64,000 nucleotides of DNA from contig JBBIUB010000002.1 in the NCBI GenBank assembly GCA_037440465.1, positions 9,705 to 73,704 on the forward strand. The letters are read 5' to 3'. Numbering within the stretch: the first letter of the stretch is position 1; each line of letters begins with the position of its first letter. The notes under the pieces were generated by a model that was not told the DNA's origin, made no database searches, and saw nothing but the letters and a program-made list of their open reading frames with translations. A program made the translations under genes and the position numbers. This document shows positions 35,088-52,169 of this stretch, piece by piece. This DNA is from Coprothermobacterota bacterium. GTDB lineage: Bacteria > Coprothermobacterota > HKB111.

Positions 35088-36479
35088 TTAAGGTGATCCA
35101 TATTTTCTTACAAAAGCCCACCCTGCCATTTCAAAGGCTGTGATAGGTAAACGGATAATTCCAGCACCCACCTGCCCAACTCCTGGATTTTTGTGAGCTA
35201 CTCCAGTATTCAAAATAGGAGTAATGCCAGTCTTTATAACTTTTAATATATCAATACCGAGAGGTGTTCCCCTGAAATTTAAATAGGGGATAGTAAATAC
35301 CTCGTTTAATGAATGAGTAATCTCATACATATCTAAATTATGGTCCATAGCATCTTTAGGTGTACCACCAATAAACTGCACTATAGCAGGAGCAGAAGCA
35401 AGTGCAAATCCACCCAGGCCTAAAGTTTCCATAATTGCAGAATCTCCCAGGTCCGGGTTAGCATCTTCCTCAGTATATCCTGGAAAGAAAAGAACATCAG
35501 GGATAGCTGCTTCAGATACAAACCACTCCTTATCCAAACCACTCACCCTAATGCCAAAATCCGTTCCATTTCGGGCTATCACATTAACAATTGATGAATA
35601 ATCAACTCTTTCAGCAGGTTCCAGGCAGGATTTAGAAGCGCCCATAGCAAGATTCAAAAAGAAGTGGTCGTTACTATCAATAAACTTCAATAATTCCTCT
35701 CCCTCTGCGACACTTCTGGATACATGAAGAATAGAGGGTGCTATGATTCTGAAAAATAGAGATGTGGCAGCTCTATTTCTGTTATGTAGCTCATCACCCA
35801 TGTGCAAAGCTTGGCTCATAACATTCTTAAGGTTAATATCCCCCAACTCATCTATTGCTTTTGACAGAACTGGGTAAAGAACATTCTCCATCCACTTTAA
35901 CCTTTCAATTACCTCCTGGCTATAAGCACCGAACCTCAATGCTTTACCCAGGCCTTCATTTTGAGTAACATACACCATATTTCCAAAAGTATTGTTTTTA
36001 ATTATAAAGACAGGCATAGATGGTGAGATTACTCCAGCCATTGGACCTACAGCATGATAATGATGAGTTGGTTCAAAGCGAATATCCCCTGAAGAAGCCA
36101 TCTCCCAGGCGTCTTTTTCTTTAGAAGTCCATCCCTCATAAAGAATAGCACCTATTATTGCTCCTTTCAAAGGTCCACACATTCTATCCCAGGTAATTGG
36201 TGGACCAGCATGAAGAAGGAATTTACCTCCAAAGCCTGGTATTATTTCCGATGCTCTACCCATACCCCAAAGATTGGGTTTTGCTGAAAGGATAATATCA
36301 ATAACCTTATTATTAGCTTCCTCAATTATCTTAATAGGTAATTTTCTGAGGTTATTAAGAAGTTCTTTATCAAGAGATGGTGGTCTAAAATCTACCTCAA
36401 CTACTTCAATGCCCTGGCTTTCTAAATCTCTGGCAAAAGCCTTAAGACCTATATTTATAACTTTAAGCTTGCTCCACAT
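35088..36479 (-). CDS. DUF1116 protein (YlbE/AllG-like oxamate carbamoyltransferase subunit)
   Basis: 463 aa; co-located with FdrA and DUF2877 genes, as in the E. coli fdrA-ylbE-ylbF cluster. Confidence 0.6.
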   Translation of the reverse strand: MWSKLKVINIGLKAFARDLESQGIEVVEVDFRPPSLDKELLNNLRKLPIKIIEEANNKVIDIILSAKPNLWGMGRASEIIPGFGGKFLLHAGPPITWDRMCGPLKGAIIGAILYEGWTSKEKDAWEMASSGDIRFEPTHHYHAVGPMAGVISPSMPVFIIKNNTFGNMVYVTQNEGLGKALRFGAYSQEVIERLKWMENVLYPVLSKAIDELGDINLKNVMSQALHMGDELHNRNRAATSLFFRIIAPSILHVSRSVAEGEELLKFIDSNDHFFLNLAMGASKSCLEPAERVDYSSIVNVIARNGTDFGIRVSGLDKEWFVSEAAIPDVLFFPGYTEEDANPDLGDSAIMETLGLGGFALASAPAIVQFIGGTPKDAMDHNLDMYEITHSLNEVFTIPYLNFRGTPLGIDILKVIKTGITPILNTGVAHKNPGVGQVGAGIIRLPITAFEMAGWAFVRKYGSP

Positions 36480-38013
36480 TTAAACTCCTTATAACCTTGC
36501 CTGCAAAAAAACTAACTTCTCTATTACTCTTGAAACATAGTGCACCTGCTTCTTCCAATGCTTTTTCTATCATATTCTTGTTCTGAATATCTTCGTGAGT
36601 ACCACATATATGAACTACAGGCAAGACTTTTCCCTTACATTCATAAATTAGGGGTAAGATTTCTTTCAGAGGTTCCATGGGTGCGCCATAACCAAGTATA
36701 AGGTCAAAAAAGATGATAGCTACATCTTCATCTTTAATCTCCCTGGATATTCTGTTTACTCGAAAAGTGTAATCAATAATAGGATGAAGGCGTCCAACAG
36801 TAAACTCGTCTTCACCGAGATCAATAATAGTATTATTAATACTTTTAACCCCCTGAATTTTGAACTCTTTAGAAAGTGGGGTATTAGAATAAACTTCTCC
36901 AATAAGACCTTTTAAAACAAGAAGTGCTTCATAAGCCAGTGTTCCGCCTGTAAAAAGACCCCTTAAATATCTTCTTTTACCAGAAATCTTCTTAGCCTCC
37001 TCAAAAGCTCTGGAAGAGATTTCATCCTCTCTTTTTTTCAAATAATCCTTTACATTTGTGGGGTTTTCCTTTCGTGTTAATGTTAGAGATAATAATGCTG
37101 CCTCTTCTAAAGACTCAGACCAGAAAAGATTAGAAGGAAGATCTGGTGGAATCGTATCTCCCAAAAAACAAACAACTACAGGTTTTTTTACTTTTCCTGC
37201 CTGTTCAAAAATCATGGAAGATACTTCTGGGTCGGGAGGTTTAGATATAAGCATAACAACTTCTGTATTATTATCAGAGGAAAGGAATTGGAGACCCATG
37301 AGAGTAGTAATGCCACCTACCTTAATATTTAAATCTCTACCACCCGTACCAATAGCGTGAGAAATCCCACCACTATAATCAGAGATGATGGAAGATACTT
37401 CCTGAATTCCTGTACCAGCTGCAGCTACTATTCCTATAGAACCTTTCCTTATCTTATTTGAAAATGCTATGCCAACCCCTCCTATAATGGCAGTACCAGC
37501 ATCTGGACCCATTAAAAAGAGTCTTCTATCAAAAGCCATTTTTTTTAATTTAGCTTCTTCATCCAGAGGAACATGATCTGAGAAAAGAAATACATTTAAT
37601 CCTTTTTCAAGTAATTCATGAGTAACCTCGTAAGCAAAACGCCCTGATACCGAAACAATAGCCAGATTTAAGTCTGGTATAGCCTTCAAAGCCGAACTTA
37701 TACTCCTTGGCTTGTGTATACTTTCTTCTTCTCTTGATTTTTTTCTTATTAAGAGTGAACACCCTTCATTAAGTGCTTTGGAAGTTGATTCTTTATCTTC
37801 TCCTTTTACTACCAGTATTAAATCCGAAGGTTTAGCCTTTTTGAATTCTTCAAGGAACATACCTGCTTCCTCTAAGAGTTTTACATTACTTTCTGTACCC
37901 ATATACAGAGCAGCTTCTATTACTCCAGGCATGGAAGATACCTGCTTGGATATAAGCATTAAAGTAGCGGAATCAAAGTAACTACCCTGTTTAATTATTC
38001 CTTCTACCCACAT
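36463..38013 (-). CDS. fdrA: FdrA family protein (AllF-like; succinyl-CoA synthetase-like fold)
   Basis: 516 aa; N-terminal KQGSYFDSATLM and CoA-binding/ligase-like domains. Confidence 0.7.
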   Translation of the reverse strand: MWVEGIIKQGSYFDSATLMLISKQVSSMPGVIEAALYMGTESNVKLLEEAGMFLEEFKKAKPSDLILVVKGEDKESTSKALNEGCSLLIRKKSREEESIHKPRSISSALKAIPDLNLAIVSVSGRFAYEVTHELLEKGLNVFLFSDHVPLDEEAKLKKMAFDRRLFLMGPDAGTAIIGGVGIAFSNKIRKGSIGIVAAAGTGIQEVSSIISDYSGGISHAIGTGGRDLNIKVGGITTLMGLQFLSSDNNTEVVMLISKPPDPEVSSMIFEQAGKVKKPVVVCFLGDTIPPDLPSNLFWSESLEEAALLSLTLTRKENPTNVKDYLKKREDEISSRAFEEAKKISGKRRYLRGLFTGGTLAYEALLVLKGLIGEVYSNTPLSKEFKIQGVKSINNTIIDLGEDEFTVGRLHPIIDYTFRVNRISREIKDEDVAIIFFDLILGYGAPMEPLKEILPLIYECKGKVLPVVHICGTHEDIQNKNMIEKALEEAGALCFKSNREVSFFAGKVIRSLNVEQA

Positions 38014-38878
38014 AATTCCTCACAAAGCATAAGCTAAAATAAAATCCTGTTAGAAAGTCAGCACCAGACGAGTGACCTATTTTTATAACCTGGAGAATAC
38101 TTGTCTCCAGAGTAGTTATATCATATGTAAATAAATTATTCACCATAACTCTGACAAATCTTCCAGCTAATCCAGCATAGGCTTCTTCAAGGAAATGGTA
38201 ACTAATTTTATTAGTCAGATTTTTAGCTAACGTAAGGATAGTTTGGCTTAAAGAAGAAAATTCATAAAAAAATATATTAAAAGAAAGGCTAAAGATACGA
38301 AGTCCCAGGATAAAACCTGACAGAAAATCATCACCTGATGGAGTTAAGCCTTCTCCTAACCCCAGTAGCAAAGTTACTCCAGTTTTCTGTTGCTTTTTAT
38401 CTAATTTAAAGAGGTGAACTAACCCAGATGATGCTTTTTTTAGTATATGAGAATTCTCTTCTTTTAGAAGTAGCGGTGTCAGGCCTCCAGGATAAGCATC
38501 TCTAAGAAGAATAAGCCTTATAAGTTCAAGGCCCTTTTCAAGATCTGAAAGAGGTTTTTCTTGAATATCAACTCTTGGATTATAAAAGGAATAATTACTA
38601 CATTCCAACTTTTCATAATTGGTAATCAAAAAACCATTCTCTCTGATGAAATGATCGCCAACCTTGTAATTTAAAAATGGTTTATCTTGAATTTCGCAGT
38701 TCAAAAGAAAACTTCGAGCACCGTCAGAGTAGTTTCTAGCTCTCACTTCCACTAATTTCTCATCCGAAGTCTCCAGATATAAAACACCTGGAAATACACT
38801 GTAAACAGTTGAGTAACCACCAACAGGTAAAAGATCTAGTGCTTCCCGGCTAACTGATACTACTCTTTTCAGACTCAC
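37991..38878 (-). CDS. DUF2877 protein (YlbF/AllH-like)
   Basis: 295 aa; third member of the FdrA/DUF1116/DUF2877 triad. Confidence 0.5.
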   Translation of the reverse strand: MSLKRVVSVSREALDLLPVGGYSTVYSVFPGVLYLETSDEKLVEVRARNYSDGARSFLLNCEIQDKPFLNYKVGDHFIRENGFLITNYEKLECSNYSFYNPRVDIQEKPLSDLEKGLELIRLILLRDAYPGGLTPLLLKEENSHILKKASSGLVHLFKLDKKQQKTGVTLLLGLGEGLTPSGDDFLSGFILGLRIFSLSFNIFFYEFSSLSQTILTLAKNLTNKISYHFLEEAYAGLAGRFVRVMVNNLFTYDITTLETSILQVIKIGHSSGADFLTGFYFSLCFVRNYVGRRNN

Positions 38879-39750
38879 TCAGGGTTCCTTCTTTTATATG
38901 TAGGGAAAGGACTTTTCGCTGACTTAAGGATAAGTTTTCCATAAGCATCCAGATTACGGTCTTCAAGATGATTATAAACCATCGGTGCCTTAGAACCATA
39001 TGAAACATATCTCAAAGGATCAGGATCCAGTTCACAAGCAATGACATCCTCCCCTCCTCTTGCTTGAGCTAACTTTTGAGCAATAGGGTTTACTATCATG
39101 CTGTGTCCGTAGTGATAATTACCTGAAGCATCAAGGCCTACTGCGTTTGTGGCTAATAAATATATGTGATTATCAAATGCCCTTGCTCTATTTGTAAGAT
39201 CCCATATTTCAAAGCTTCTTAGAAATGCTGAGGGTCTTACTATTATTTCTGCTCCTTGCAAAGCCATAATTCTTGCAAGTTCTGGGAAATCACCATCATA
39301 ACAAATAATAATACCTATTTTTGCTAAGCGAGTATTAAAAACAGGTACCTGAAAGCCTGCTTTTACATTTTTTTCTGTTGGGAAAGGATGGGTTTTTCTG
39401 TAAGTACCAACTATTCTGCCATTATCATCAATTAAAACTGCAGAATTATAAACTTCCTCTTTGTTATGCCCTTTTTCATAAAAAGGAAGGACAATATGCA
39501 CTCGGAGACTTTTACACATATCACAAATTTCATCAGTTAGATTGCCAGGAATATCAGTAGCTAATTCGTAAAGCTCACTTATTCCAAGATCAGGAGCGAA
39601 AGAGGTTACTATAGTCTCAGGAAGTACTATTAAATCTGCATTAAATTCATCCTTCACTTTTCTAACAGAGCTCTTTATTTTGATTATGTTCTCTGTAATC
39701 CTAAGAGGCAATGAATTCATCTGTATACAGGCAGCTATAAATCTTTCCAT
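38875..39750 (-). CDS. carbon-nitrogen hydrolase family amidase/nitrilase
   Basis: E-K-C triad context: LIVLPE, YRKTHPF, GIIICYD. Confidence 0.8.
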   Translation of the reverse strand: MERFIAACIQMNSLPLRITENIIKIKSSVRKVKDEFNADLIVLPETIVTSFAPDLGISELYELATDIPGNLTDEICDMCKSLRVHIVLPFYEKGHNKEEVYNSAVLIDDNGRIVGTYRKTHPFPTEKNVKAGFQVPVFNTRLAKIGIIICYDGDFPELARIMALQGAEIIVRPSAFLRSFEIWDLTNRARAFDNHIYLLATNAVGLDASGNYHYGHSMIVNPIAQKLAQARGGEDVIACELDPDPLRYVSYGSKAPMVYNHLEDRNLDAYGKLILKSAKSPFPTYKRRNPE

Positions 39751-40934
39751 CCTACTACCCCCTTCTCTTTGAGTTCACTTAAGTATTCATCATCAAAACC
39801 CAAAAGATTAGATAGAGCTTCACGAGTATGCTGACCAAGATAAGGAGCTGGCATCCGGGGACCAGTCTGAGTTTGAGAAAGCTTGAAGGGAGACCCAACA
39901 GTTTTATAAGGTCCCACTAATGAATGTTCCATTTCTACTATCATCTGACGAGAAATCACCTGTTGGTCTTTAACAACTTCCTTTATAGTATTTATAGGAC
40001 CGTACGGTATACCATTTTTCTCAAAAATGTTACTCCATTCCTTATATGTCTTTTTCTGGAAAACCTTCTCCAATTCCGGAATTAAAATGTGTTTATTCAA
40101 TGTACGTTGGTAGTTATTGGAGAATAAAAGGTTCTTTGTCAGATCTTCTCTCCCAATTACCTGGCAGAATTCCAGCCAGAGTTTTTCGCTCCCAAGAGGA
40201 AGTATTATGTAATTGTCTTTTGTCTTAAAGGCTTGAAAAGGGGTTATAGAAGGATGAGAGGTTCCTAAAGGTTCTGGTACTACACCTTCAATATAATATC
40301 TGGTTATAGCATTCTCTAAAAGATACACCATTCCATCCAGCATGCCATAATCTAACCTTTGTCCCAAACCTGTTTTTTCTTTATAATAAAGTGCGCCCAG
40401 GATTCCTATGGCTGCATGGTGACCTGCGATTAAATCACCAATGGAGATACCTACCCTTACTGGTTGACCGTTAGGTTCTCCTGTAATACTCATTAAACCA
40501 CTTGTTCCTTGTACAACCATGTCATATGAAGGTTTATCCTTATAGGGTCCCGTATGACCAAAACCTGAAATAGAAGCATAAATAATCCTGGGATTTTCCT
40601 TTCTTATTTCCTCATAGCCAAGACCTAATTTTTCTAAAGTGCCAGGACGGAAGTTCTCAACAATCACATCAGATATACGGCTTAATCTCTTTACTATATT
40701 AACTCCTATAACTGTTTTAATGTTTACTACAACACTTTTTTTATTACGATTAATGCTCATAAAATAAGCACTTTCATCTTTAATAAAAGGACCGTAGGTG
40801 CGAGCACCATCTCCTCCTGGTGGTTCAATCTTAATAACTTCTGCTCCCATATCACCGAGAATCATCGTACAGAATGGACCTGCCAGGATATGACTTAAAT
40901 CAAGTATTCTCAAGCCATACAGGGTTCCAGTCAT
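39735..40934 (-). CDS. CaiB/BaiF family (class III) CoA-transferase
   Basis: N-terminal LRILDLSHILAGPFCTMILGDMGAEVIKIE, typical of the family. Confidence 0.85.
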   Translation of the reverse strand: MTGTLYGLRILDLSHILAGPFCTMILGDMGAEVIKIEPPGGDGARTYGPFIKDESAYFMSINRNKKSVVVNIKTVIGVNIVKRLSRISDVIVENFRPGTLEKLGLGYEEIRKENPRIIYASISGFGHTGPYKDKPSYDMVVQGTSGLMSITGEPNGQPVRVGISIGDLIAGHHAAIGILGALYYKEKTGLGQRLDYGMLDGMVYLLENAITRYYIEGVVPEPLGTSHPSITPFQAFKTKDNYIILPLGSEKLWLEFCQVIGREDLTKNLLFSNNYQRTLNKHILIPELEKVFQKKTYKEWSNIFEKNGIPYGPINTIKEVVKDQQVISRQMIVEMEHSLVGPYKTVGSPFKLSQTQTGPRMPAPYLGQHTREALSNLLGFDDEYLSELKEKGVVGWKDL

Positions 40935-41192: not shown

Positions 41193-43598
41193 GTGAGAAA
41201 ACTTAAATTCTTTGAAGTAACTTGTAGGAGCAACCCGAAAGACTTTGATTTCAAAACAACAAAAGAAGTCAGTCCTCTTGAAGGAACAATTGGACAGGAT
41301 AGAGCTCTTAATTCTATAGAAATCGCCCTTAACATGAAAACTAAAGGGTTTAACATTTACTTAGCTGGGCCAAGAGGGATTGGTAAGACTTTTACTATAA
41401 AAGCATTTCTTTCTGAAAAAGCAGCAAAAGAGACAATTCCTGAAGATATTATTTATGTTTATAACTTCAAAAAAACTGATAGCCCAAGACCTATTATACT
41501 TAAAACGGGTAAGGGAAAAGTCCTAGCTAAAGCTATGGAAAGTTTCTCAAAAGAGTTGAAAGACAAAATGCCTCAGTTGTTTGAAGGCGAGGAATACGAC
41601 CGTAAACGACTTGAAATTATTTCTAAAGCCCAGAAAGAAAAAGATGAAACCCTCCACCAAGCACAAAATATAGCTCGAACAGAGGGATTCTTACTCCAAA
41701 TGAATCAACAGGGTGTATTCATCGTTCCAACTAAAAACGGAACACCACTTTCTGCAGATATTTTTCAGTCTCTTCCAGATGATGAAAAAAAAGTCTGGGA
41801 AGATAAATACAAAATAATTAACGAAGAGGTAGGTAAAGTTATAAGAACTATCAAGAAAATAGATAAAGAACTTTCTGAAAAACTCCAGCAACTGGATGCA
41901 GATGTTCTAAAAATTACTCTTAACCATCTCCTTTTAGAAATTAGAACAGAATTCTCCTCAGAAAAAGATGTCCTTGCTTACTTACTTGAAGTAGAAGAAA
42001 ATATATTAAACAATATAATTGAATTAAAAACCCAGAAAGATACAACAATACCCTCTCCTACATCATTTCTTTTACCTGCAACTGACCCTTATTCCCGTTA
42101 CCAGATTAATTTAGTAGTAGACAATTCATACTCCCAGGGAGCCCCGGTAATTTTCGAAAACAATCCTACATATTACAATTTAATTGGAAGAATTGAGTTC
42201 AAATCAAATTTTGGTGTGGCAACTACAAGCTTTGACCTCATTAAAGCAGGCTCTTTATTAAAAGCCAATGGTGGATACCTGGTAATCCAGGCTTCAGATG
42301 TCTTGAGAAATCCTTTCTCATGGGAAGCTCTTAAAAAATCTTTGAATAACGAAGAGTTAATAATTGAAAATATTGGAGAACAGTTAAGGATAGACCCTGT
42401 AGTTACTCTCAAACCTGAACCTATTCCCTTAAAGGTAGAAGTAATATTAATGGGAAGTCTACAGCTATATTATTTACTCTATTATTATGATGAAGACTTC
42501 AAGAAGCTCTTCAAGATAAGAGCTGATTTTGACACTGAGATGGTAAGAAATACAGAACATATAAAAAAGTACGCTTCCTTTATAAGAGCAAGGGTTGACG
42601 AAGAGAATTTAAATCATTTTGATAAAAATGCCGTAGCTGTTATAGTTGATTATGGTTCTCGTCTTGCAGAAAATCAGGAAAAGCTTTCAACAAAATTCAG
42701 TGAAATAGCAGATATCATATCCGAAGCTAATTATTGGGCTTCCAGGGAAGGTAGTAAAATCATAAAAAAACAACATGTTGAGAAAGCAATGGAGGAAAAA
42801 ATATATCGTTCCAACCTCATTGAGATGAAAATCCAGGAATTCATCGAAAATGGTACTATCCTATTGGATACTACAGGAGCAAAAGTTGGACAGGTTAATG
42901 GAATTTCTATTTTAACTTTTGGTGACTACTCTTTTGGAAAACCAACACGAATAACTGCATCAGTATCTTTAGGTTCTCGTGGAATAGTTAATATTGAACG
43001 AGAAGTAGAAATGAGTGGTAGACTCCACAGTAAAGGTGTCATGATTGTTTCAGGTTATCTAAGGGAACTGTTTGCCAAGGAAAAGCCTTTATCTCTAACT
43101 GCTACTCTTGTTTTTGAGCAACTATACGAAGAGATAGAAGGAGATAGCGCCTCCAGTGCTGAACTTTATGCTCTTCTTTCAGCTATATCAGGTATCCCAT
43201 TAAAGCAAAATTTAGCTGTAACTGGCTCTGTTAACCAAAAAGGAGAGATTCAACCTATAGGTGGAGTAACCAAAAAAATAGAAGGCTTCTTTGATGCTTG
43301 TAAAGTTAAAGGTTTAACCGGTGATCAAGGTGTAATCATACCCCATCAGAACATCAAAAACCTGGTCCTAAAAGAAGAAGTTGTCAATCTTATTAAAAAA
43401 AGCCAATTTCACATCTATTCGATAAAAAATATTAATGAAGGTATTGAGTTATTAACAGACGTTAGAGCAGGAGAGAAAGATACTAACGGAAACTATCCAG
43501 AAGGAACAGTTTACCATTTAATCAATAAAAATCTTACTAAAATGGCAGATCTTCTTAAAGGGCGCGAAGAAAAGGAAAAAACACCCGATAATCAGTAA
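41193..43598 (+). CDS. Lon-related ATP-dependent protease (AAA+ ATPase + S16 Lon protease domain; LonC/lon_rel-like)
   Basis: Walker A LAGPRGIGKT. C-terminal Lon protease domain with catalytic Ser region EGDSASSAELYA and Lys region GGVTKKIEG. No TM segments. Confidence 0.8.
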   Translation: MRKLKFFEVTCRSNPKDFDFKTTKEVSPLEGTIGQDRALNSIEIALNMKTKGFNIYLAGPRGIGKTFTIKAFLSEKAAKETIPEDIIYVYNFKKTDSPRPIILKTGKGKVLAKAMESFSKELKDKMPQLFEGEEYDRKRLEIISKAQKEKDETLHQAQNIARTEGFLLQMNQQGVFIVPTKNGTPLSADIFQSLPDDEKKVWEDKYKIINEEVGKVIRTIKKIDKELSEKLQQLDADVLKITLNHLLLEIRTEFSSEKDVLAYLLEVEENILNNIIELKTQKDTTIPSPTSFLLPATDPYSRYQINLVVDNSYSQGAPVIFENNPTYYNLIGRIEFKSNFGVATTSFDLIKAGSLLKANGGYLVIQASDVLRNPFSWEALKKSLNNEELIIENIGEQLRIDPVVTLKPEPIPLKVEVILMGSLQLYYLLYYYDEDFKKLFKIRADFDTEMVRNTEHIKKYASFIRARVDEENLNHFDKNAVAVIVDYGSRLAENQEKLSTKFSEIADIISEANYWASREGSKIIKKQHVEKAMEEKIYRSNLIEMKIQEFIENGTILLDTTGAKVGQVNGISILTFGDYSFGKPTRITASVSLGSRGIVNIEREVEMSGRLHSKGVMIVSGYLRELFAKEKPLSLTATLVFEQLYEEIEGDSASSAELYALLSAISGIPLKQNLAVTGSVNQKGEIQPIGGVTKKIEGFFDACKVKGLTGDQGVIIPHQNIKNLVLKEEVVNLIKKSQFHIYSIKNINEGIELLTDVRAGEKDTNGNYPEGTVYHLINKNLTKMADLLKGREEKEKTPDNQ

Positions 43599-44794
43599 CG
43601 CCAGAAAGCACCTATGCCTCCATAAGTCATTAATACCTCTGAAGCTTCTCCTCCCAATATCTCCAGTTTAATTTTGTGTTTTCTAATTAAAAGGGGCAAA
43701 AAAGTTTTTATTGACCCCCTTGCAAAAACCTCAGAACCACAAAAAGAACAAGGACCTGATTTATCTTTCTCAAGGTTAAAACATAATTTGCACTCTCGTA
43801 AACTAACTTTTATCTGCCTTGAAATAATTACCGTGTCAGCCTTCCCATCTTTTAGTGTTTTTAGAGAAGAATCCAAGCCTACACCGGCTAAATTACCAGT
43901 AGCAGATCTTTCTAGAAGTAGTTCCACTATTTTTTTCTCTCTCTCCCTCTCGTACTCCCAGAATACAGCTAATGAAGTATCAAGCACTTCTTTAGGTGGA
44001 GCGTAAAGAGGTATTGCTACTCTACCAACAACCATTACCTCTTTATTTTTACTAAGCAGTTTAAGATATCTATCTTGAATAATTTCAGACCCACCAAGAA
44101 CTATTTCATTTATATTGTAATTTTTCTTTAACTGACTAAAAAATGATGTTGTCTCTTTATAAAATCTCTGAGTATTTGCTTCTACCCTATCAACAAAAGC
44201 TTCAACTCTATCTCCACCTCCCATTGCTCCTCTTGTAATACCATCCCTGGGAGAAGAAGGAGGCATCAGACGTTGCTTGCGCCAATCAGTTGTCTCTAAG
44301 CCTAAATCAAAAGATTTGATCATTTCAACTCTATTAAGCTGTATTCTAAGGAACTCTACCTTTGTGGCATCCACAAATATCACACCATAAGGACGATATT
44401 CTTCCAAAAGCCATATAATCTGACCAATACTGGGTTTCCCAAAAGATACTTCTTTTTCTACACCAACTTGCAAGGTTATTACTTCTTTGAGAACTTCTCC
44501 TACAAATATAATAGCTGACTTTTCTTTAAAAAGAGTGCCTTCAACTATTAATTGGGCTTTCTCTTCGACTTTTTCAAAGTAAGGAAGGTCATCTCTGGAT
44601 ATTTTTTTCTTCAAATCCTTTAATGCTCCCTTCAGCCATATTTGTGATGCAGTTCTTCCTCCATCAGATACAGAGGAGTCGGTATTTAGGTAAATAGTTA
44701 AAACCTTGTCTTCACTGGAATTTAAGAGTTCCTCTAACTTTGAAGTTTCTATCATGGTCCTCACCTCGCAGTTCTTTTTATTAGCATACCACAT
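43592..44794 (-). CDS. baeRF family protein: eRF1/Pelota-like domains 2-3 with C-terminal zinc ribbon
   Basis: RNase-H-like central domain (GVIFVDATKVEFLRI). eRF1 domain-3-like ATGNLAGVGLDSSLKTLKDGKADTVIISRQI. CKLC...CSFC zinc ribbon. A likely start is the internal MIETSKL. Converges on the Lon-like gene with a 7-nt 3' overlap. Confidence 0.55.
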   Translation of the reverse strand: MWYANKKNCEVRTMIETSKLEELLNSSEDKVLTIYLNTDSSVSDGGRTASQIWLKGALKDLKKKISRDDLPYFEKVEEKAQLIVEGTLFKEKSAIIFVGEVLKEVITLQVGVEKEVSFGKPSIGQIIWLLEEYRPYGVIFVDATKVEFLRIQLNRVEMIKSFDLGLETTDWRKQRLMPPSSPRDGITRGAMGGGDRVEAFVDRVEANTQRFYKETTSFFSQLKKNYNINEIVLGGSEIIQDRYLKLLSKNKEVMVVGRVAIPLYAPPKEVLDTSLAVFWEYEREREKKIVELLLERSATGNLAGVGLDSSLKTLKDGKADTVIISRQIKVSLRECKLCFNLEKDKSGPCSFCGSEVFARGSIKTFLPLLIRKHKIKLEILGGEASEVLMTYGGIGAFWRY

Positions 44795-44799
44795 TATAA

Positions 44800-46557
44800 A
44801 TGTATAATATTTATACTATGAAAACGTTATCAGGTTTTCTTAAAGAGCATTTGCGAGAATTCTTTTTTGGAATTCTTTTTCTAATAGCAGTAGACCTTGT
44901 GCAACTCTTAATACCTCAGGTTCTAAGAAGAGCCACAGATGAACTAAGATCAATGTCCATAACCACAGCAACTCTTCTCAGGTATGCCATGTTATTAGCG
45001 ATTCTGGCAATAGTTATGGTTATTTTACGTTTTGCCTGGAGAAATTTAATTTGGGGTACCTCCAGAAAAATAGAAAAAAAATTGAGAGAGCAATATTTTC
45101 AAAAATTACAAACTATGGATATGAAATATTTTAACTATCATAAAATTGGCGACTTGATGGCTTTAGCAACTAATGACATCAATGCTGTCAGGATGAGCCT
45201 TGGTGAAGGATTGCTTCTCATCACTGACGCTATTTTTATGATCTCTCTCGGTGCTTATTTTTTGGCAGGAATCAATAGTAAACTATTTATCAGCGTCTTT
45301 CTTCCTCTTCCATTAATAACAATAACAGTACTATTTTTTGGGAAGGCAATACACGAACGATTCAAAAGGGCTCAAGAAGGCTTTGCTCAGCTAACTTCAA
45401 GGGTGCAAGAATCAATAACAGGTATAAGAGTGGTAAAAGCCTACGGACAAGAAGAAGGAGAAATAGATAATTTCAAAGAAACAGCAGGCGACCTTGTTAA
45501 TAGAAATATGGAGCTTGCAAGGATTGGAGGCATTTTCACCCCTCTGGTTCAATATCTCTCTTCGCTTTGTTTATTTATAACTTTAATCTATGGAGGAAGA
45601 TTAACTATCCTCGGAGAGATCACTTTGGGTGATTTTATAGCCTTCCATGCCTATCTTGGTCTTTTAACCTGGCCTATGATGGCTATGGGTTGGGTAGTTA
45701 ACATCCTGCAAAGAGGAAAAGCTTCTCTTCAAAGACTAAACGAAGTATTTACCGAAATCCCTTATATTAAAGATAAAGAAGATGCAGTAAAAATGATTGG
45801 ACCAATCAAAGGGGATTTAGAATTTCATAATGTGACTTTTAGATACCCTGAGAGAGACAAACCAGCCTTATTAAATATCTCATTTAAACTAAAGGCAGGC
45901 GATATTCTGGGGGTTGTTGGTAAGCTTGGTAGTGGAAAAACCACTCTTTTAAACCTTATTCCTCGACTTTACGATATAGAACAAGGAGAAATCTTTTTAG
46001 ATGGTATAGAACTAAGAAAAATAGCTTTACAAAGCCTTAGAAAGATAGTAAGTTTTATACCACAAGAAAGCTTCCTCTTCTCAGATAGTATTCGAGAGAA
46101 TATATGCTTTTCAGATCCTTATGGAAGCAAAGAAAAGGCCATAGAATTAATTAAAACAGTTCATATTTATGAAGAAATCTCAAACATGCCACAGGGTATA
46201 GATACAATAGTGGGAGAAAGAGGAATAACCCTCTCAGGTGGACAGAAACAGAGGGTGGCTATTGCCCGAGCTCTTTATAGTGAACCTAAAATATTAATCT
46301 TTGACGATGCCTTTTCTTCTCTTGACTACCACACAGAAGAAGAGATTATCAAAGAGATGATTAAGTTAAAATACACTGCCATCATCTCTTCTCACCGATT
46401 ATCCTGCCTTAAGTATGCCAGGGAAATAATTGTTCTGGATGAAGGTGAAATAATTGAACAAGGAAATCACGAAGAACTAATATCAAATGATGGGTTTTAT
46501 GCACATCTCTACCGTTTACAGCAACTGGAGTTGGAAGAATCTCCAGAAGAGGTTTGA
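44800..46557 (+). CDS. ABC transporter permease/ATP-binding protein (MdlA-type exporter)
   Basis: Six-TM domain plus NBD with Walker A GKLGSGKTT, signature LSGGQKQR and Walker B ILIFDD. Confidence 0.85.
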   Translation: MYNIYTMKTLSGFLKEHLREFFFGILFLIAVDLVQLLIPQVLRRATDELRSMSITTATLLRYAMLLAILAIVMVILRFAWRNLIWGTSRKIEKKLREQYFQKLQTMDMKYFNYHKIGDLMALATNDINAVRMSLGEGLLLITDAIFMISLGAYFLAGINSKLFISVFLPLPLITITVLFFGKAIHERFKRAQEGFAQLTSRVQESITGIRVVKAYGQEEGEIDNFKETAGDLVNRNMELARIGGIFTPLVQYLSSLCLFITLIYGGRLTILGEITLGDFIAFHAYLGLLTWPMMAMGWVVNILQRGKASLQRLNEVFTEIPYIKDKEDAVKMIGPIKGDLEFHNVTFRYPERDKPALLNISFKLKAGDILGVVGKLGSGKTTLLNLIPRLYDIEQGEIFLDGIELRKIALQSLRKIVSFIPQESFLFSDSIRENICFSDPYGSKEKAIELIKTVHIYEEISNMPQGIDTIVGERGITLSGGQKQRVAIARALYSEPKILIFDDAFSSLDYHTEEEIIKEMIKLKYTAIISSHRLSCLKYAREIIVLDEGEIIEQGNHEELISNDGFYAHLYRLQQLELEESPEEV

Positions 46558-46558
46558 C

Positions 46559-48517
46559 ATGTGTCCTCCTGATGACCTGGAAGTAGAAAGGAAAGCACCC
46601 GACTTGCGCTTAATAAAAAACCTTCTTGTATTTGCGCGTCCATATGTAAAAACGATACTTATTGCTTTTATTATTATTGCTCTTACCACAGGCCTGGAGC
46701 TTCTTTTACCTTACCTTATAAAGATAGGTATAGATAGGTATATTAATCCACATAAAATTATAGAAAAGGCAAGCTATTATGAAATTAGCTCAGAAATCTT
46801 TCAGGAATTATCCAGTAAAGAACCATTTCTATTAATACGAATTGAAGAATCTCTTAAGCATGTAGAAGGAAAAATGTACTTACCTACTGAAGTACTTAAC
46901 AGCCTGAGTAGTGCTGAGATATCAATATTAAGGCGTACAGACCTTTCCCGCATAAACTTGATAGCCCTGCTATTTTTATTAACTATCTCTTTGAATTTCT
47001 TTTTGAACTACGCTCATATAATCATTTTAAATATTGCAAGCCAGAAGATTATTTACGACTTAAGAGTAAAAATATTTACTCATCTACAAGCTCTACCCTT
47101 TGCTTTCTTTGATAGAAATCCGGTGGGAAGGTTGGTTACTAGAGTAACCAACGATACAGATGCCATTCAAGAAATGTTCAGCAATGTCATAATAGCCCTT
47201 TTAAAAGATTTTCTGCTGGTATTTGGAATTATTATTGTCATGATATCCTTAAATTTAAAATTAGGTATCGTTTCCATTTCATTACTGCCTTTGGTTATTA
47301 TCCTAACAGTAACATTCCGCTTGAAAGCTCGAGAAATTTATCGTATGGTCAGGACAAGACTTGCCAGAATCAATGCTTATATAGCAGAAAATATCTCAGG
47401 GATAAAGATAACCCAACTCTTCCTGCGAGAAAATGAAAACCTTAAAAGATTTAAGGTAATAAATAGTGATTACTACAAAGCTACTATACTCAATCTAAGG
47501 CTTAATTCTATCTATAGGCCCTTGATAAATGCTGTTAGCTCTCTAACCTTAGCTTTATTGATATATTATGGCGGAGGAGAAATAATAAAGGAAAAAGTAG
47601 AATTTGGTCTTCTCTTTGTCTTCATTTCCTATATTCAGACCCTTTTCAGACCTATCCAGGATATGGCAGAAAAATATGATTTACTTCAAGGTGCTATGGC
47701 TTCTTCGGAGAGAGTTTTTGCTCTCCTTGGAGAATCTATTCCAATAACTGATATAAAAAATCCAATTTCTCTAAAGGAAGCTGTTGGTTCTATTGAAATA
47801 AAAGATGTTTGGTTCGCTTATGAAAAAGAAGATTGGGTTCTAAAAGGTGTCTCATTCAATGTACGACCTGGGGAAAGCGTAGGAATAGTTGGAATGACAG
47901 GAGCTGGAAAAACATCAATAATCAATCTTCTATGTCGGTTTTACGAGCCACAGAAGGGTGAGATATTAATTGATGGCATTGACATCAAAAAGATTGCTCT
48001 AAAAGATCTAAGACACAACATCGCTGTGATACTACAGGATGTATTTTTATTTGCTACTGATATAAAAGGAAACATACGTCTTAACAACAGGGATATTTCT
48101 GATGAAGAGGTCATGGAAGCAGCTTCCAGGGTACAAGCTCACAAATTTATTGAAGACTTACCTAACGGTTATAGCGAAAAAGTAGAAGAGGGAGGTTCAA
48201 CTCTCTCCGCAGGTCAGAGACAGTTAATCTCCTTTGCAAGAGCCCTGGTTTTTAATCCTCGAGTCTTAATTTTAGACGAAGCTACATCTAATATAGATTC
48301 GGCCACTGAAGTACTTATCACCGAAGCTCTAAAGGTCCTTATAAAAGGAAGAACCAGTATTATCATTGCACATCGTCTCTCAACCCTTGAAAATGTAGAT
48401 AGAATAATAATCCTTAGTAAAGGTAAAATAGTGGAAACCGGAACACATAGAGAACTAATGGCTGCAAAAGGTCTATACTATCATCTTTATACCGTTCAAA
48501 AGATGCAGGTGGTATAA
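46559..48517 (+). CDS. ABC transporter permease/ATP-binding protein (MdlB-type exporter) with enlarged first extracytoplasmic loop
   Basis: Start taken at the ATG 1 nt after the upstream TGA. NBD has GMTGAGKTS, LSAGQRQL and ILILDE. About 80 extra residues between TM1 and TM2. Confidence 0.8.
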   Translation: MCPPDDLEVERKAPDLRLIKNLLVFARPYVKTILIAFIIIALTTGLELLLPYLIKIGIDRYINPHKIIEKASYYEISSEIFQELSSKEPFLLIRIEESLKHVEGKMYLPTEVLNSLSSAEISILRRTDLSRINLIALLFLLTISLNFFLNYAHIIILNIASQKIIYDLRVKIFTHLQALPFAFFDRNPVGRLVTRVTNDTDAIQEMFSNVIIALLKDFLLVFGIIIVMISLNLKLGIVSISLLPLVIILTVTFRLKAREIYRMVRTRLARINAYIAENISGIKITQLFLRENENLKRFKVINSDYYKATILNLRLNSIYRPLINAVSSLTLALLIYYGGGEIIKEKVEFGLLFVFISYIQTLFRPIQDMAEKYDLLQGAMASSERVFALLGESIPITDIKNPISLKEAVGSIEIKDVWFAYEKEDWVLKGVSFNVRPGESVGIVGMTGAGKTSIINLLCRFYEPQKGEILIDGIDIKKIALKDLRHNIAVILQDVFLFATDIKGNIRLNNRDISDEEVMEAASRVQAHKFIEDLPNGYSEKVEEGGSTLSAGQRQLISFARALVFNPRVLILDEATSNIDSATEVLITEALKVLIKGRTSIIIAHRLSTLENVDRIIILSKGKIVETGTHRELMAAKGLYYHLYTVQKMQVV

Positions 48518-48519
48518 AA

Positions 48520-49500
48520 GTGAACTTTATTACAAAAATCCTTTTAAAAGGCCGTTCAATTAAAAATCCAGAAAGCAAGTCTATACTTGGCTACTGGGAA
48601 GCAGGAATAAGTATAGTACTTAACCTGATTATTTCCTTCGTTAAGTTCTACCTTGGTTTTTTAACAGGAAGTATTGCCTTAAAAGGAGATGCTCTCCACA
48701 CTCTCTCAGATACCCTTACTTCGTTAGTGGTTTTAGTTGGTATAAAATTATCCTCTATACCTCCTGATAAGGAACATCCTCACGGTCATGGCCGCATGGA
48801 ATGGCTCTCCAGTTTAGCTATCGCTCTTCTTCTTGTTGTAACCGGAACAAGTTTATTCTTGACTTCCTATAAAAGAATCAGCTCACCATCAATACAAGAA
48901 ATTCCGGGAACTATATTTATATTTATCCTTCTATTCTTTTCTCTTCTAAAAGAGCTCCTGTTCCGCTTATCCTTTTTCTGGGGAAAAAACGCAGAAATCA
49001 GCTCTCTTATAGGTGATGCTTACCACCATAGAACCGATGCATTTGCTTCTCTTTTGGTAATTACAGGCCTTTTACTTCAGAGGTTCAATTTCATTTTCTT
49101 AGATGGTGTCCTTGGTATAATAATATCCTTTTTCATAATAAAGGTTGGTTTTGATATAGTCCTATCTTCAACAAGCCTTCTTTTAGGGAAGAAAGGTAAT
49201 GCTACAGACTTAGAAATAATTGAAGAGTTGGTTTTCGAAATCAACGGTGTAAAAGAAGTTCATAAGATAGAAATACACGATTTTGGTAATTTCAAAGATA
49301 TTTCCCTCCATATACTCTTGAATGGCAAAATTCCCCTTGACGAAGCTCACAATATTGCCCAAGAAGTTGAAGATAAGATCAAAAAGGTGTTTTTCCTTTC
49401 CCATATAACTGTCCACACAGAACCTTACAATTTAAAACAGGATTCAAGGAGTCAAGGGGTCGGGGGGTCGAGCGAAAACCACAACATTTTATTGGACTAA
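48520..49500 (+). CDS. cation diffusion facilitator family transporter
   Basis: Six-TM CDF core with the HTLSDT and HHRTDAF metal-site motifs and a cytoplasmic C-domain. The final 20 codons run through a dispersed repeat. Confidence 0.8.
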   Translation: MNFITKILLKGRSIKNPESKSILGYWEAGISIVLNLIISFVKFYLGFLTGSIALKGDALHTLSDTLTSLVVLVGIKLSSIPPDKEHPHGHGRMEWLSSLAIALLLVVTGTSLFLTSYKRISSPSIQEIPGTIFIFILLFFSLLKELLFRLSFFWGKNAEISSLIGDAYHHRTDAFASLLVITGLLLQRFNFIFLDGVLGIIISFFIIKVGFDIVLSSTSLLLGKKGNATDLEIIEELVFEINGVKEVHKIEIHDFGNFKDISLHILLNGKIPLDEAHNIAQEVEDKIKKVFFLSHITVHTEPYNLKQDSRSQGVGGSSENHNILLD

Positions 49501-49539
49501 GTCTTATAATATTAAAAACTCGCCTTGGAGGTATTTAAA

Positions 49540-50349
49540 ATGAAATTCTATATATCTATTGATTGGGAAGGCATTTCAGGAGTTGTATCCTGGGAACAGC
49601 AGGATGATATAAAATCCCCATCCTACTTAGAAACAAGGAAGAGGATGACCCGAGAAGCTAATGCTGTTATTGAAGGCCTTTTTGAAGGAGGAGCTTCTTA
49701 TGTTTTAATAAACGATTCTCATGGCTATATGACAAATATTCTCATAGATGAATTAGATCCAAGAGCTGAGCTAATTATGGGCTCTCCAAAACCGTACTCC
49801 ATGGTAGAAGGTTTGAACTCGGAATTTGATGGAGCAATCCTGTTGGGTTACCACCCGCGAGCAGGAACAGAAAAAGGTATCTTAGACCATACTTATTCTA
49901 GTGCAAGTATATATGAACTGAGAGTCAATGGTGAACCATTTTCGGAAGGAGACTTGAATGGATGTTATGCAGGTTCTCTGGGAGTTCCCATAGTATTAGT
50001 CTCTGGCGATAGGGCTGCAGTTAATGACCTCCAAAAAAGGTTTAAAGGAGCTTTAGGAGTGATAACAAAAGTTGCTGTTAGCAGAAGTGCTGCTCGTTTA
50101 ATACATCCACAAAAAGCTTATGAAGAGTTAAAGAACAAAGCCAGACAAGTAGTAAGCTTAACACCCACAATTTTACCAGTAACACCTAAACATCCAATAA
50201 CCTTAGAGATAGATTTTGTTAACTCCCAAAAAGCTGAAAGTGCCACAATTCTTCCTGAATCAGAAAGAATGGGTCCAAGGACTGTTAAGATAACTGCCCC
50301 TGATATGGTAACAGCTTACCGTAGATTTCTCGTTCTCCTCAGGTTATAA
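49540..50349 (+). CDS. M55 family metallopeptidase (D-aminopeptidase DppA-like)
   Basis: MKFYISIDWEGISGV N-terminus typical of M55. Start placed at the ATG with GGAGG 8 nt upstream, not the TTG of the ORF track. Confidence 0.8.
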   Translation: MKFYISIDWEGISGVVSWEQQDDIKSPSYLETRKRMTREANAVIEGLFEGGASYVLINDSHGYMTNILIDELDPRAELIMGSPKPYSMVEGLNSEFDGAILLGYHPRAGTEKGILDHTYSSASIYELRVNGEPFSEGDLNGCYAGSLGVPIVLVSGDRAAVNDLQKRFKGALGVITKVAVSRSAARLIHPQKAYEELKNKARQVVSLTPTILPVTPKHPITLEIDFVNSQKAESATILPESERMGPRTVKITAPDMVTAYRRFLVLLRL

Positions 50350-51998: not shown

Positions 51999-52087
51999 TG
52001 GTGCCGGGGGTGGGAATCGAACCCACACGAGGTTTACCCTCAGCGGATTTTAAGTCCGCTGCGTCTGCCTAATTCCGCCACCCCGGC
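51999..52087 (-). tRNA. tRNA-Leu (TAA)
   Basis: Reverse complement GCCGGGGTGGCGGAATTAGGCAGACGCAGCGGACTTAAAATCCGCTGAGGGTAAACCTCGTGTGGGTTCGATTCCCACCCCCGGCACCA: class II tRNA with a long variable arm and anticodon TAA. Confidence 0.9.
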
Positions 52088-52093
52088 TATTGG

Positions 52094-52169
52094 TGGAGGC
52101 GAGGGCCGGATTTGAACCGGCGAATAGCGATTTTGCAGACCGCCGCCTTAGCCACTTGGCTACCTCGCC
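52094..52169 (-). tRNA. tRNA-Cys (GCA)
   Basis: Reverse complement GGCGAGGTAGCCAAGTGGCTAAGGCGGCGGTCTGCAAAATCGC...GGTTCAAATCCGGCCCTCGCCTCCA; anticodon GCA; discriminator U. Confidence 0.9.

Follow-up and report, generated by a model that had tools for sequence, protein, structure and literature searches.

Convergent genes for a LonC-type protease and a three-domain protein of the baeRF-1/Balon clade

Results

Gene layout and the convergent junction

The window (the 64,000-nt stretch of contig JBBIUB010000002.1 that was analysed) contains two open reading frames that, as the initial annotation had claimed, overlap at their 3' ends:

41193..43598, forward strand: Lon gene, 801 aa, GTG start, predicted LonC-subfamily Lon-like protease
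43592..44755, reverse strand: baeRF gene, predicted baeRF-1/Balon clade, 387 aa plus stop; the open reading frame reaches 44794
43592..43598, no strand: convergent overlap of both stop regions, 7 nt, read from sequence
44761..44767, reverse strand: Shine-Dalgarno-like GAGGTGA, 5 nt upstream of the ATG at 44755, read from sequence

The Lon stop codon (TAA) lies at 43596-98, and the TGA that ends the baeRF gene occupies 43592-94 on the reverse strand. The baeRF reading frame was first listed as 43592..44794 on the reverse strand, with 400 aa. Translation most likely begins instead at ATG 44755 (MIETSK..., 387 aa), because GAGGTGA lies just upstream and a length of 387 aa is shared by five of the six closest homologues.

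In relatives, the two genes lie anywhere between 1 nt apart and overlapping by about 41 nt. The window itself has four convergent junctions, with spacings of +25, -7, +29 and +2 nt; since all four are equally tight, compaction alone explains the overlap, and 7 nt is nothing special in this genome. The genes converge, so they do not form an operon and are not co-transcribed. Their neighbours are metabolic and transporter genes (a CoA-transferase, a nitrilase, an ABC exporter), and GC content is fairly uniform over the window (0.33-0.41), with no dip at the locus.

LonC features of the 801-residue protein

Five motifs could be placed in the Lon protein:

41367..41390, forward strand: Walker A GPRGIGKT (residues 59-66), whose canonical form the closest relatives share
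42270..42296, forward strand: degenerate Walker B GGYLVIQAS, residues 360-368, aligned with GGYLILDA of MtaLonC
43140..43154, forward strand: catalytic serine motif GDSAS (Ser652), aligned with the MtaLonC active site
43275..43277, forward strand: catalytic Lys695 in KKIEG, invariant in the family alignment and aligned with the lysine of ...AKVEG in MtaLonC
43299..43322, forward strand: LonC-specific insertion CKVKGLTG, residues 703-710, consensus CX3GLX(G/E)

Pfam recognises LonC_helical, AAA_32, LonB_AAA-LID and Lon_C domains, and the top PDB sequence match is LonC of Meiothermus taiwanensis (4fwd, E 3.5e-90). In a 12-sequence family alignment G650, D651, S652 and A653 are invariant, and EGDSAS around Ser652 agrees with the LonB-like (E/D)GDSA active-site consensus of LonC; the catalytic lysine of MtaLonC is named K625 (PMC3391209). 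Within the CKVKGLTG insertion the family alignment shows no variation at C703, G707 and G710 and hardly any at L708, and CX3GLX(G/E), located between alpha3 and beta9, is unique to LonC (PMC3391209). The overall architecture is also that of LonC: the AAA-like module carries a large helical insertion, the LonA N-domain is absent, and no transmembrane segment is predicted (maximum KD19 1.36).

Non-canonical Walker motifs are a further LonC trait. Here Walker B is degenerate and Walker A canonical, while elsewhere in the family Walker A carries K-to-R or T-to-N changes. The Walker B Asp position is occupied by Gln, and the Glu is missing; among 12 aligned family members, this position is Q in nine, N in two and D in one. 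The characterised members MtaLonC and TTC1975 have no ATPase activity and degrade unfolded substrates independently of ATP (PMC3391209); LonC biochemistry is also reported in PMC13069640. The Pfam architecture, the 4fwd match, the CX3GLXG insertion, the Ser-Lys dyad, the Asp-to-Gln change in Walker B and the published biochemistry together assign the protein to the LonC subfamily of Lon-like proteases. The S16 Ser-Lys domain and intact Walker A described in the initial annotation are thus in place, but its label of a processive AAA+ protease does not hold, given the degenerate Walker B and a subfamily whose characterised members have no ATPase activity: with Gln in place of the Walker B aspartate, ATP-driven processive unfolding is doubtful. 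More than 4000 homologues were found at E<=1e-20, LonC being very widespread on its own.

Family and predicted fold of the 387-residue protein

The product of the reverse-strand gene had been described as an eRF1/Pelota-like baeRF protein, and profile searches agree, with scores above the gathering thresholds of both Pfam baeRF_family10 (PF18854; 62.8 bits, E 5.7e-17, threshold 27.1) and baeRF_family5 (PF18846; 56.7 bits, E 3.5e-15, threshold 27.0). The choice between these two models is ambiguous. The top NCBIfam match is NF052288, the MSMEG_1130 family ribosome hibernation factor (E 1.6e-13), at 50.5 bits, which does not reach the equivalog cut-off of 480 bits, and the score against TIGR03676 (classical aRF1/eRF1) is 24.5 bits, below the 234.7 cut-off. 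The A4 family profile matches PDB Balon 8v9j_z (MSMEG_1130) over its full length (E 3e-26, positions 16-385), aRF1 over partial length (E 2.4e-13), Rv2629 (E 1.4e-7) and P. urativorans Balon (E 5e-7).

The AF2 model (pLDDT 87.4, pTM 0.81) has the three-domain aeRF1/Pelota fold (N, M, C). Foldseek comparison with the PDB matched it to Balon, aRF1, eRF1 and Pelota (E 1e-22 to 1e-6), with two MSMEG_1130 Balon entries ranked first (TM 0.70-0.74) and chains of P. urativorans Balon and Rv2629 also among the top nine (Balon TM range 0.62-0.74), so the structural check bears out the proposed fold. The protein contains neither the stop-codon motif NIKS nor YxCxxxF or GGQ, and it also lacks the glutamine of GGxSQ; the PADLOC defence search returned zero matches for it. 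Balon has an HP motif for the decoding centre and a bL27-trap loop, for which the text of the Balon paper gives no residue positions; in A4 the helical hairpin of the N-domain has no conserved HP dipeptide at its tip. Together, the Pfam scores, the best NCBIfam model, the A4 profile, the AF2 and Foldseek results and the lack of NIKS and the GGQ glutamine identify the 387-aa protein as a member of the bacterial baeRF-1/Balon clade with a predicted three-domain aeRF1 fold.

The GG loop and the zinc ribbon

Three features could be placed in the baeRF protein:

44213..44272, reverse strand: GGQ-equivalent loop, residues 162-181 (...PPSSPRDGITRGAMGGG, then D), collinear with the aRF1 GGQ loop
43811..43903, reverse strand: start of the C-terminal eRF1_3-like domain, aligned with the start of aRF1 domain 3
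43739..43792, reverse strand: Cys4 zinc ribbon (C322, C325, C336, C339; 387-aa numbering), inserted in the C-terminal domain

The second of these is the eRF1-domain-3-like signature ATGNLAGVGLDSSLKTLKDGKADTVIISRQI (ATGNLAGVGL...ISRQI) pointed out initially, which is indeed present. At the GGQ position the protein reads GGD, followed by RVEAF; within its subfamily the residue after GG is D, N, S or T and never Q. P165, P166, S167, P169, G176, G180 and G181 of this loop are invariant in seven sequences (A1), and residues 162-180 have pLDDT <50 in the AF2 model, as a disordered 19-residue loop. The family-10 protein of another locus, L050, carries GGRSQ, whereas the protein in the window has no Gln in that register.

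The four ribbon cysteines are invariant in A1, and all four are found in 128 of 155 aligned sequences (149 nearest representative clusters plus six reference proteins). About 48 residues beyond the ribbon complete the C-terminal domain; the CxxC...CxxC ribbon first noted is therefore real but not terminal, since it is inserted inside that domain. Its counterparts in the alignment are the zinc ribbon of aRF1 and, in Msmeg1130, a segment without Cys. [quoted passage not shown] A two-strand insert has been described as possibly a degenerate zinc ribbon, and baeRF family 10 was picked out as potentially active, with a conserved catalytic-loop Gln (Burroughs and Aravind, 2019, PMC6514570).

Neighbourhood across genomes

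The adjacency of Lon and baeRF genes is kept in five relatives only, all from one small bacterial lineage (candidate division WS2 / 'Lithacetigena-Psychracetigena'), which share a five-gene synteny of M55 peptidase, two ABC genes, baeRF and Lon. With one lineage and a wider synteny, all direct adjacency counts as a single evolutionary event. At L002 different genes lie on the far side of Lon and the Lon-baeRF junction is intact; the junction has therefore survived at least one far-side rearrangement, and some selection for adjacency is possible. Around baeRF orthologues with 34-40% identity (L007, L088, L089/L090, L091) no Lon was found within 6-10 kb.

We also looked from the Lon side, at the best 80 of at least 590 LonC loci (metagenomes; 576 kb of flanks), with baeRF relatives in genomes sought by pattern. 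Only one of these 80 loci has any baeRF. At that locus, L050, the baeRF precedes LonC by about 4 kb in a cluster of baeRF, DAC, FtsH, LonC and Hsp20 that all lie on one strand. Downstream neighbours of LonC (n=73, from the best 80 of at least 590 loci) are heterogeneous, no family occurring more than three times. Elsewhere (L092 and L093) a baeRF immediately follows genes for DnaJ and an HtrA-type protease, and Hsp20, DnaK and DnaJ are the reported gene neighbours of Balon (PMC10901736); no RaiA/HPF neighbour was seen near the baeRF gene. At most, the adjacency reflects a tendency of Balon-type genes to adjoin proteostasis or stress genes.

Discussion

Our preferred reading, to which we give a probability of about 0.6 as a whole, is that the locus combines two stress or housekeeping genes of known families, each transcribed on its own, and is not a dedicated two-component system, and that their tail-to-tail adjacency arose once in the WS2/'Lithacetigena-Psychracetigena' lineage and was inherited inside a larger syntenic block. 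Since the two genes adjoin each other in just one small bacterial lineage, the most likely view is that they are ordinary stress genes rather than a new system with two parts; both proteins are further members of known families. Going by its homologues MtaLonC and TTC1975, the LonC-type protein would assemble into a hexameric chamber in which Ser652 and Lys695 form the dyad. Its intact P-loop probably binds nucleotide. With neither the Asp nor the Glu in Walker B, ATP is most likely left unhydrolysed, so that the protein would degrade polypeptides that are unfolded or unstructured; it may also serve as a holdase. The baeRF protein would most likely dock in the ribosomal A site of stressed or starved cells and act there, without catalysis, as a hibernation or occlusion factor like Balon, Msmeg1130 and Rv2629, a Balon-like function that we infer by extrapolation across about 16% identity. 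These three hibernation factors are characterised structurally and functionally (PMC10901736), Balon since 2024, and the initial description of baeRF proteins as almost unstudied is out of date. The strongly conserved, aRF1-length GG loop would be unexpected for a purely passive A-site plug, which counts against the hibernation reading.

The initial annotation had proposed a dedicated pair, with the baeRF recognising stalled ribosomes and the Lon-like protease degrading the nascent chain, or a variant of it in translation-targeted biological conflict. Balon can bind ribosomes still holding peptidyl-tRNA (PMC10901736), and the adjacency is shared by six genomes or contigs, whose baeRFs are 52-100% identical, and extends across the breakpoint beyond Lon; L050, with its FtsH and Hsp20, is an independent LonC locus, and the baeRFs downstream of DnaJ and an HtrA-type protease fit as well. 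The genes nevertheless converge and overlap, which excludes an operon, and their direct adjacency amounts to one event in one lineage. Four contexts of the 34-40% identical orthologues have adequate flanks and no Lon, baeRF is absent from 79 of the 80 LonC loci (best 80 of at least 590), LonC is very widespread alone, and the baeRF protein lacks the catalytic Gln for chain release. The conflict variant finds no defence match for baeRF and a marginal BrxL match for Lon in PADLOC. We regard a dedicated pair as improbable.

It is likewise unlikely that the baeRF protein is a catalytically active rescue factor, rather than a hibernation factor, whose GGD loop would reach the PTC for peptidyl-tRNA hydrolysis. 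In bacterial release factors, many substitutions of the GGQ glutamine lower hydrolysis without abolishing it. The loop is collinear with that of aRF1, retains the two glycines and shows high conservation across the subfamily, whereas the structurally characterised Msmeg1130 has most of its GG loop deleted, and baeRF family 10 is the one singled out as potentially active (PMC6514570). However, the subfamily never has Q after GG, the GGxSQ register holds no Gln of the kind seen in GGRSQ of L050, no motif for stop-codon or empty-A-site recognition was found, and the overall profile is nearest to non-catalytic Balon.

A regulatory link, in which LonC clears free baeRF after dormancy or overlapping transcripts make expression mutually exclusive, is a purely inferential idea that we consider quite improbable. 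The 3' overlap has no terminator-like site between the genes and persists in most relatives, LonC degrades unstructured proteins (PMC3391209), and the baeRF protein has its disordered 19-residue loop. Yet compaction suffices for four equally tight junctions, conservation does not extend beyond one lineage, and our literature search found no Balon-Lon connection.

Very unlikely, too, is that the subfamily with zinc ribbon and conserved GG is an aRF1-to-Balon intermediate in evolution and function whose aRF1-length loop enters the PTC and releases the nascent chain or processes it in some other way, with the adjacent ATP-independent LonC clearing the unfolded product; if true, this would be a bacterial, tmRNA-independent route of rescue and degradation on stalled or stressed ribosomes in a WS2/Lithacetigena-like lineage. 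Finally, an orphan BrxL-type anti-phage defence protease is hardly credible for the Lon-like gene: the PADLOC BrxL match is weak (E 3.2e-4, 17 bits) and covers only residues 624-743, part of the protease domain, while the Pfam architecture and the E 3.5e-90 match say LonC, the neighbours are metabolic and transporter genes without a GC dip, and no brx/pgl genes lie nearby, in keeping with the earlier statement that the protein is not BREX. LonC-specific features effectively refute a BrxL identity.

Comparison with known systems

With LonC (MEROPS S16 subfamily C; MtaLonC and Thermus thermophilus TTC1975) the 801-aa protein shares the order of domains (N-terminal P-loop segment, helical insertion, AAA_32, LID, Lon_C protease). 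Common to both are also a Ser-Lys dyad and the CX3GLXG insertion, a Walker B that is degenerate, and the lack of a transmembrane segment. The 801-aa protein differs in its fully canonical Walker A (GPRGIGKT, versus GPPSLGKH in MtaLonC) and in also losing the Walker B Asp (to Gln), and identity is only moderate, with a poorly conserved helical insertion.

The baeRF protein passes both gathering thresholds of the baeRF-1 families (Burroughs and Aravind, 2019; PF18854, PF18846) and has their three-domain architecture and retained zinc ribbon; unlike family 10, it lacks the highlighted catalytic Gln, and the reported HPF neighbourhood is absent here. Like Balon (P. urativorans Balon, Msmeg1130, Rv2629; PDB 8rd8, 8v9j, 8v9k), it is a predicted three-domain bacterial aeRF1 homologue without NIKS and the GGQ glutamine, its C-terminus is Balon-like (...LRY/WRY), and its relatives adjoin chaperone, protease and Hsp20 genes. 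Unlike Balon, to which it is only about 16% identical and whose NCBIfam equivalog cut-off lies far above its score, it has no identifiable HP motif or bL27 trap, and no RaiA/HPF neighbour; where Balon has a Cys-less, EF-Tu-contacting beta-hairpin it carries a Cys4 zinc ribbon, and where Msmeg1130 has most of the loop deleted it keeps an aRF1-length loop with a conserved GG. aRF1/eRF1 (e.g. PDB 4af1) differ from it in having NIKS, YxCxxxF and GGQ for GGD, as the TIGR03676 score reflects (24.5 versus 234.7 bits), and, as a bacterium, its host would have RF1/RF2 of its own. Alignment with aRF1 nonetheless covers the middle and C-terminal domains (E 2.4e-13); loop length, the GG and the position of the ribbon inside domain 3 agree as well, and the aRF1-length GG loop and Cys4 zinc ribbon are ancestral aRF1 features that the baeRF protein has kept.

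Two convergent genes and their 3' junction

The two genes analyzed here lie tail to tail on opposite strands:

41193..43598, plus strand: Lon-like ORF (LonC), 801 aa
43592..44794, minus strand: release-factor-like ORF (baeRF), 400 aa as called

The initial annotation had reported two ORFs with overlapping 3' ends, and both are present. The Lon-like gene stops at TAA (43596-98) and baeRF at TGA (reverse complement of 43592-94); read from the sequence, the convergent genes overlap by 7 nt. This overlap is unremarkable and typical of the window, because its four convergent junctions are spaced by +25, -7, +29 and +2 nt. No terminator-like site was found at the junction, and the counts of consensus promoters and terminators matched the shuffle expectation with no special element at the 3' overlap, so that an intrinsic terminator or other special element there was rejected. 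Antisense interference between the convergent transcripts is one proposal for this arrangement. The baeRF start is most likely the ATG at 44755 (MIETSK...), giving 387 aa, the form to which residue numbers below refer; this ATG is preceded at 5 nt by the Shine-Dalgarno sequence GAGGTGA, and the 387-aa length and the start position recur in five of the six closest homologues.

The window as a whole has a low GC content (0.33-0.41); its GC skew is strongly negative as far as about 45 kb, and the minus strand carries nearly every gene in the first 41 kb. Genes for a family III CoA-transferase, a CN_hydrolase/nitrilase, and AllH-, AllF- (Ligase_CoA) and AllG-like proteins occupy 35088..40934 (minus strand), labeled from the Pfam labels of 46-79% identical genes in a related locus (L001); by these labels the cluster looks like one for allantoin/oxamate-type catabolism. 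Rfam (gathering thresholds) and tRNA scans of the window returned only seven tRNAs, none of them near the LonC-baeRF locus:

26110..26363, minus strand: tRNA cluster Glu-Met-Asn (tRNA scan)
51999..52169, minus strand: tRNA cluster Leu-Cys (tRNA scan)
53293..53451, minus strand: tRNA cluster Gly-Phe (tRNA scan)

The Lon-like protein

The Lon-like protein carries the Pfam domains LonC_helical, AAA_32, LonB_AAA-LID and Lon_C, and its best solved relative is Meiothermus taiwanensis LonC, or 'TTC1975 peptidase' (4fwd, E 3.5e-90), with archaeal LonB at 7.5e-29 and LonA at about 1e-4, the last over the protease domain only. A 12-member LonC family alignment shows no variation at the GDSA serine motif (Ser652) or at Lys695, and CKVKGLTG at 703-710 fits the CX3GLX(G/E) insertion that is unique to LonC as defined by Liao et al. 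(PMC3391209). Because these LonC features are present and the PADLOC match to BrxL is marginal and partial, we rejected a BREX/BrxL reading, in agreement with the earlier placement of the protein outside BREX; judged by its sequence it is an ordinary LonC and not a BREX orphan. The family is very large (more than 4000 matches at E<=1e-20) and taxonomically broad, with approximately 50% identical members in Armatimonadota, Chloroflexota, Nitrospirota, Caldisericia and Bacillota.

The Walker A motif was rightly described as intact: GPRGIGKT is canonical in this LonC and its closest relatives, with Lys to Arg or Thr to Asn replacements elsewhere in the family. The Walker B position, which aligns with GGYLILDA of MtaLonC, reads GGYLVIQAS, with Gln in place of Asp and no following Glu; among the 12 aligned members the residue is Gln in nine, Asn in two and Asp in one. 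MtaLonC and TTC1975 bind nucleotide, show no ATPase activity and degrade only unfolded substrates (PMC3391209), and a chaperone function for LonC has since been added (PMC13069640). With a degenerate Walker B and no ATPase activity in the characterized LonCs (PMC3391209), calling the protein a 'processive AAA+ protease' is unjustified. We would instead expect a hexameric Ser-Lys protease that binds ATP without hydrolyzing it and clears unfolded proteins.

The release-factor-like protein has a Balon-like fold

The fold of the second protein had been compared to eRF1/Pelota, and profile, AlphaFold2 and Foldseek results together confirm that claim. Two Pfam models, baeRF_family10 (62.8 bits) and baeRF_family5 (56.7 bits), exceed their gathering thresholds. 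Among NCBIfam models, the MSMEG_1130 (Balon) ribosome hibernation factor family ranks first (E 1.6e-13, with a score far below the equivalog cut-off), followed by aRF1 (E 1e-5). With a profile built from 36 homologues, the M. smegmatis Balon chain 8v9j_z is matched along its entire length (E 3e-26) and aRF1 4af1 in the M and C domains only (2.4e-13); Rv2629 and P. urativorans Balon are matched too. From the same alignment AlphaFold2 gave a confident model (pLDDT 87.4, pTM 0.81) with a single disordered stretch at residues 162-180. In a Foldseek search of the PDB, two MSMEG_1130 Balon entries ranked first (E 1e-22, TM 0.70-0.74), P. urativorans Balon and Rv2629 chains were among the top nine matches (TM 0.62-0.68), and aRF1, eRF1 and Pelota ranked below the Balons with lower TM values, because their domain orientations differ.

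The nearest characterized relatives of baeRF are thus the Balon hibernation factors (PMC10901736), and the remark that baeRF families are almost unstudied is out of date, the hibernation role of Balon/baeRF-1 having been known since 2024. The close family has few members (a single-sequence search gave seven proteins, a profile search 36), within a superfamily of 7879 representative clusters at E<=1e-3.

The LonC-baeRF adjacency belongs to one lineage

A convergent Lon gene directly adjoins baeRF in five related loci (L001, L002, L004, L005 and L006; baeRF identity 52-62%), whose source labels include Candidatus Psychracetigena, Candidatus Lithacetigena/candidate division WS2 and a MAG labeled Coprothermobacterota. 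Taken together, the closest relatives of LonC and baeRF are no more than 52-64% identical and are labeled candidate division WS2, Ca. Lithacetigena and Ca. Psychracetigena; the window itself probably comes from another genus or family of that candidate phylum. Divergent from baeRF, on the side away from Lon, lies a pair of genes for heterodimeric-type ABC exporters (ABC_membrane with ABC_tran), followed by one for a cation-diffusion facilitator and one for an M55 peptidase (44800..50349, plus strand). The exporter pair and the M55 peptidase adjoin baeRF in all close relatives with enough sequence on that side, the too-short L005 contig being left out of the comparison; their adjacency is therefore as conserved as that of Lon. 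Multidrug exporters have been noted among Balon neighbors (PMC10901736). Since the same contigs conserve these genes as well, the LonC-baeRF adjacency is part of an inherited synteny in one lineage. On the far side of Lon the genes of L002 are different, which means that at least one rearrangement left the junction intact.

No Lon gene was found within 6-10 kb of the 34-40% identical subfamily orthologues in L007 (Fraserbacteria), L088, L091 and L089/L090 (Bacteroidota), which share the length of baeRF, its ribbon and a ...FWRY or ...LWRY C-terminus. Locus L003 is uninformative for pairing, as its contig stops about 400 bp past baeRF in sequence with tRNA-like-looking translations. A pattern-based scan of the genome collection for baeRF relatives returned four loci.

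From the Lon side, all ORFs of 80 metagenomic LonC loci (the best 80 of at least 590, 42-49% identical and with flanks totaling 576 kb) were searched with three HMMs of increasing breadth, and only one of these 80 loci, L050, contained a baeRF, of family 10 and about 4 kb upstream of LonC. The 73 immediate downstream neighbors of LonC were heterogeneous, no Pfam family occurring more than three times. Weak baeRF-HMM matches downstream of LonC in four loci were considered as truncated baeRFs and rejected: Pfam identifies a double zinc ribbon plus HTH, and the matches arose from Cys motifs only. The corresponding gene, for a protein of about 185 aa, lies immediately convergent downstream of LonC (L027:8447-9001, L045:3547-4107, L047:2877-3452 and L057:4455-4994) and may be a lineage-specific LonC neighbor; two of the four proteins match an HTH weakly at the C-terminus.

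The initial annotation had suggested an uncharacterized pair for ribosome rescue and nascent-chain degradation, or for translation-targeted conflict. A conserved Lon-baeRF neighborhood was looked for and rejected: we find adjacency only in one syntenic lineage plus co-occurrence at about 4 kb in L050; with Lon-less orthologues, and 79 of the 80 sampled LonC loci lacking baeRF, a dedicated functional pair has no support beyond that lineage. A protease-substrate relationship between LonC and baeRF can be proposed; a literature search found no published link between Balon and Lon. That LonC and baeRF form a system is not a defensible reading; a general placement of baeRF among stress genes is.

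baeRF genes among proteostasis and stress genes

In L050:726-10259 a mostly same-strand series encodes baeRF, a PGPGW membrane protein, a DacZ-type diadenylate cyclase, FtsH, LonC, Hsp20 and an M50/CBS protease, with one small opposite-strand ORF between the cyclase and FtsH. More distant ribbon-bearing baeRF relatives, in L092:3802-7101 and L093:3747-7101, come directly after genes for DnaJ and an HtrA-like trypsin-PDZ protease. All three genes share one strand and follow a divergent GAF/response-regulator pair, an arrangement kept in two unrelated contigs; Hsp20 is close by in L093. Both contexts agree with the report of Balon genes in stress-response operons with Hsp20, DnaK and DnaJ (PMC10901736), and a tendency of baeRF genes to lie among genes for proteostasis and stress is a defensible generalization. 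Their recurrence near LonC, FtsH, HtrA, DnaJ and Hsp20 merits a statistical survey. The gene for ThiI (tRNA 4-thiouridine synthase, THUMP plus rhodanese) is another translation-related neighbor: in Fraserbacteria-like contigs it is without exception the divergent partner of the baeRF orthologue (L003:6473-9272, L007:8349-11134, L088:6364-9146 and L091:4349-7155).

Comparison with aRF1 and Balon

Both genes are further members of already known families; family membership, fold and motif states are shown, and the domain-level interpretation was right. The finding mostly closes the lead, leaving an ordinary LonC and a Balon/baeRF-1-clade protein, of which the latter departs from its studied relatives in two motifs.

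A motif search of baeRF found no NIKS, YxCxxxF or GGQ. The disordered stretch at 162-180 is its GGQ-equivalent loop and aligns residue for residue with that of aRF1 (W...P...G...GGQ), with GGD at the GGQ position and GG[D/N/S/T] in relatives. A catalytic GGQ or GGxSQ is ruled out, the glutamine being missing from both registers, whereas the L050 protein has a VLRF1-like, Gln-containing GGRSQ loop. In Msmeg1130 most of the GG loop is deleted, while the window's subfamily keeps the loop as long as in aRF1, its prolines and glycines strongly conserved; such conservation could be proposed to reflect residual catalytic or PTC-probing activity. We favor a non-catalytic Balon-like factor, which would dock in the A site under stress.

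The CxxC...CxxC ribbon had been placed at the terminus; it is present, but C322, C325, C336 and C339 form an insertion within the C-terminal domain. The zinc ribbon of aRF1 aligns with it, as does a segment of Msmeg1130 that has no cysteines. All four cysteines occur in 128 of 155 aligned Balon-relative sequences (the 149 nearest representative clusters at 50% identity, together with six reference proteins); a zinc ribbon is common in this part of the family. Many Balon relatives, including the window's baeRF, have thus retained the ancestral aRF1 ribbon. Burroughs and Aravind considered the two-strand insert of many baeRF families possibly a degenerate ribbon (PMC6514570), and Balon contacts EF-Tu through a unique beta-hairpin inserted in its C-terminal domain (PMC10901736); the ribbon of baeRF would be placed at that surface. 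Ribbon-bearing forms and those that keep the GG loop could reveal by what route a release factor turned into one for hibernation, and whether an intact ribbon changes the recognition of EF-Tu.
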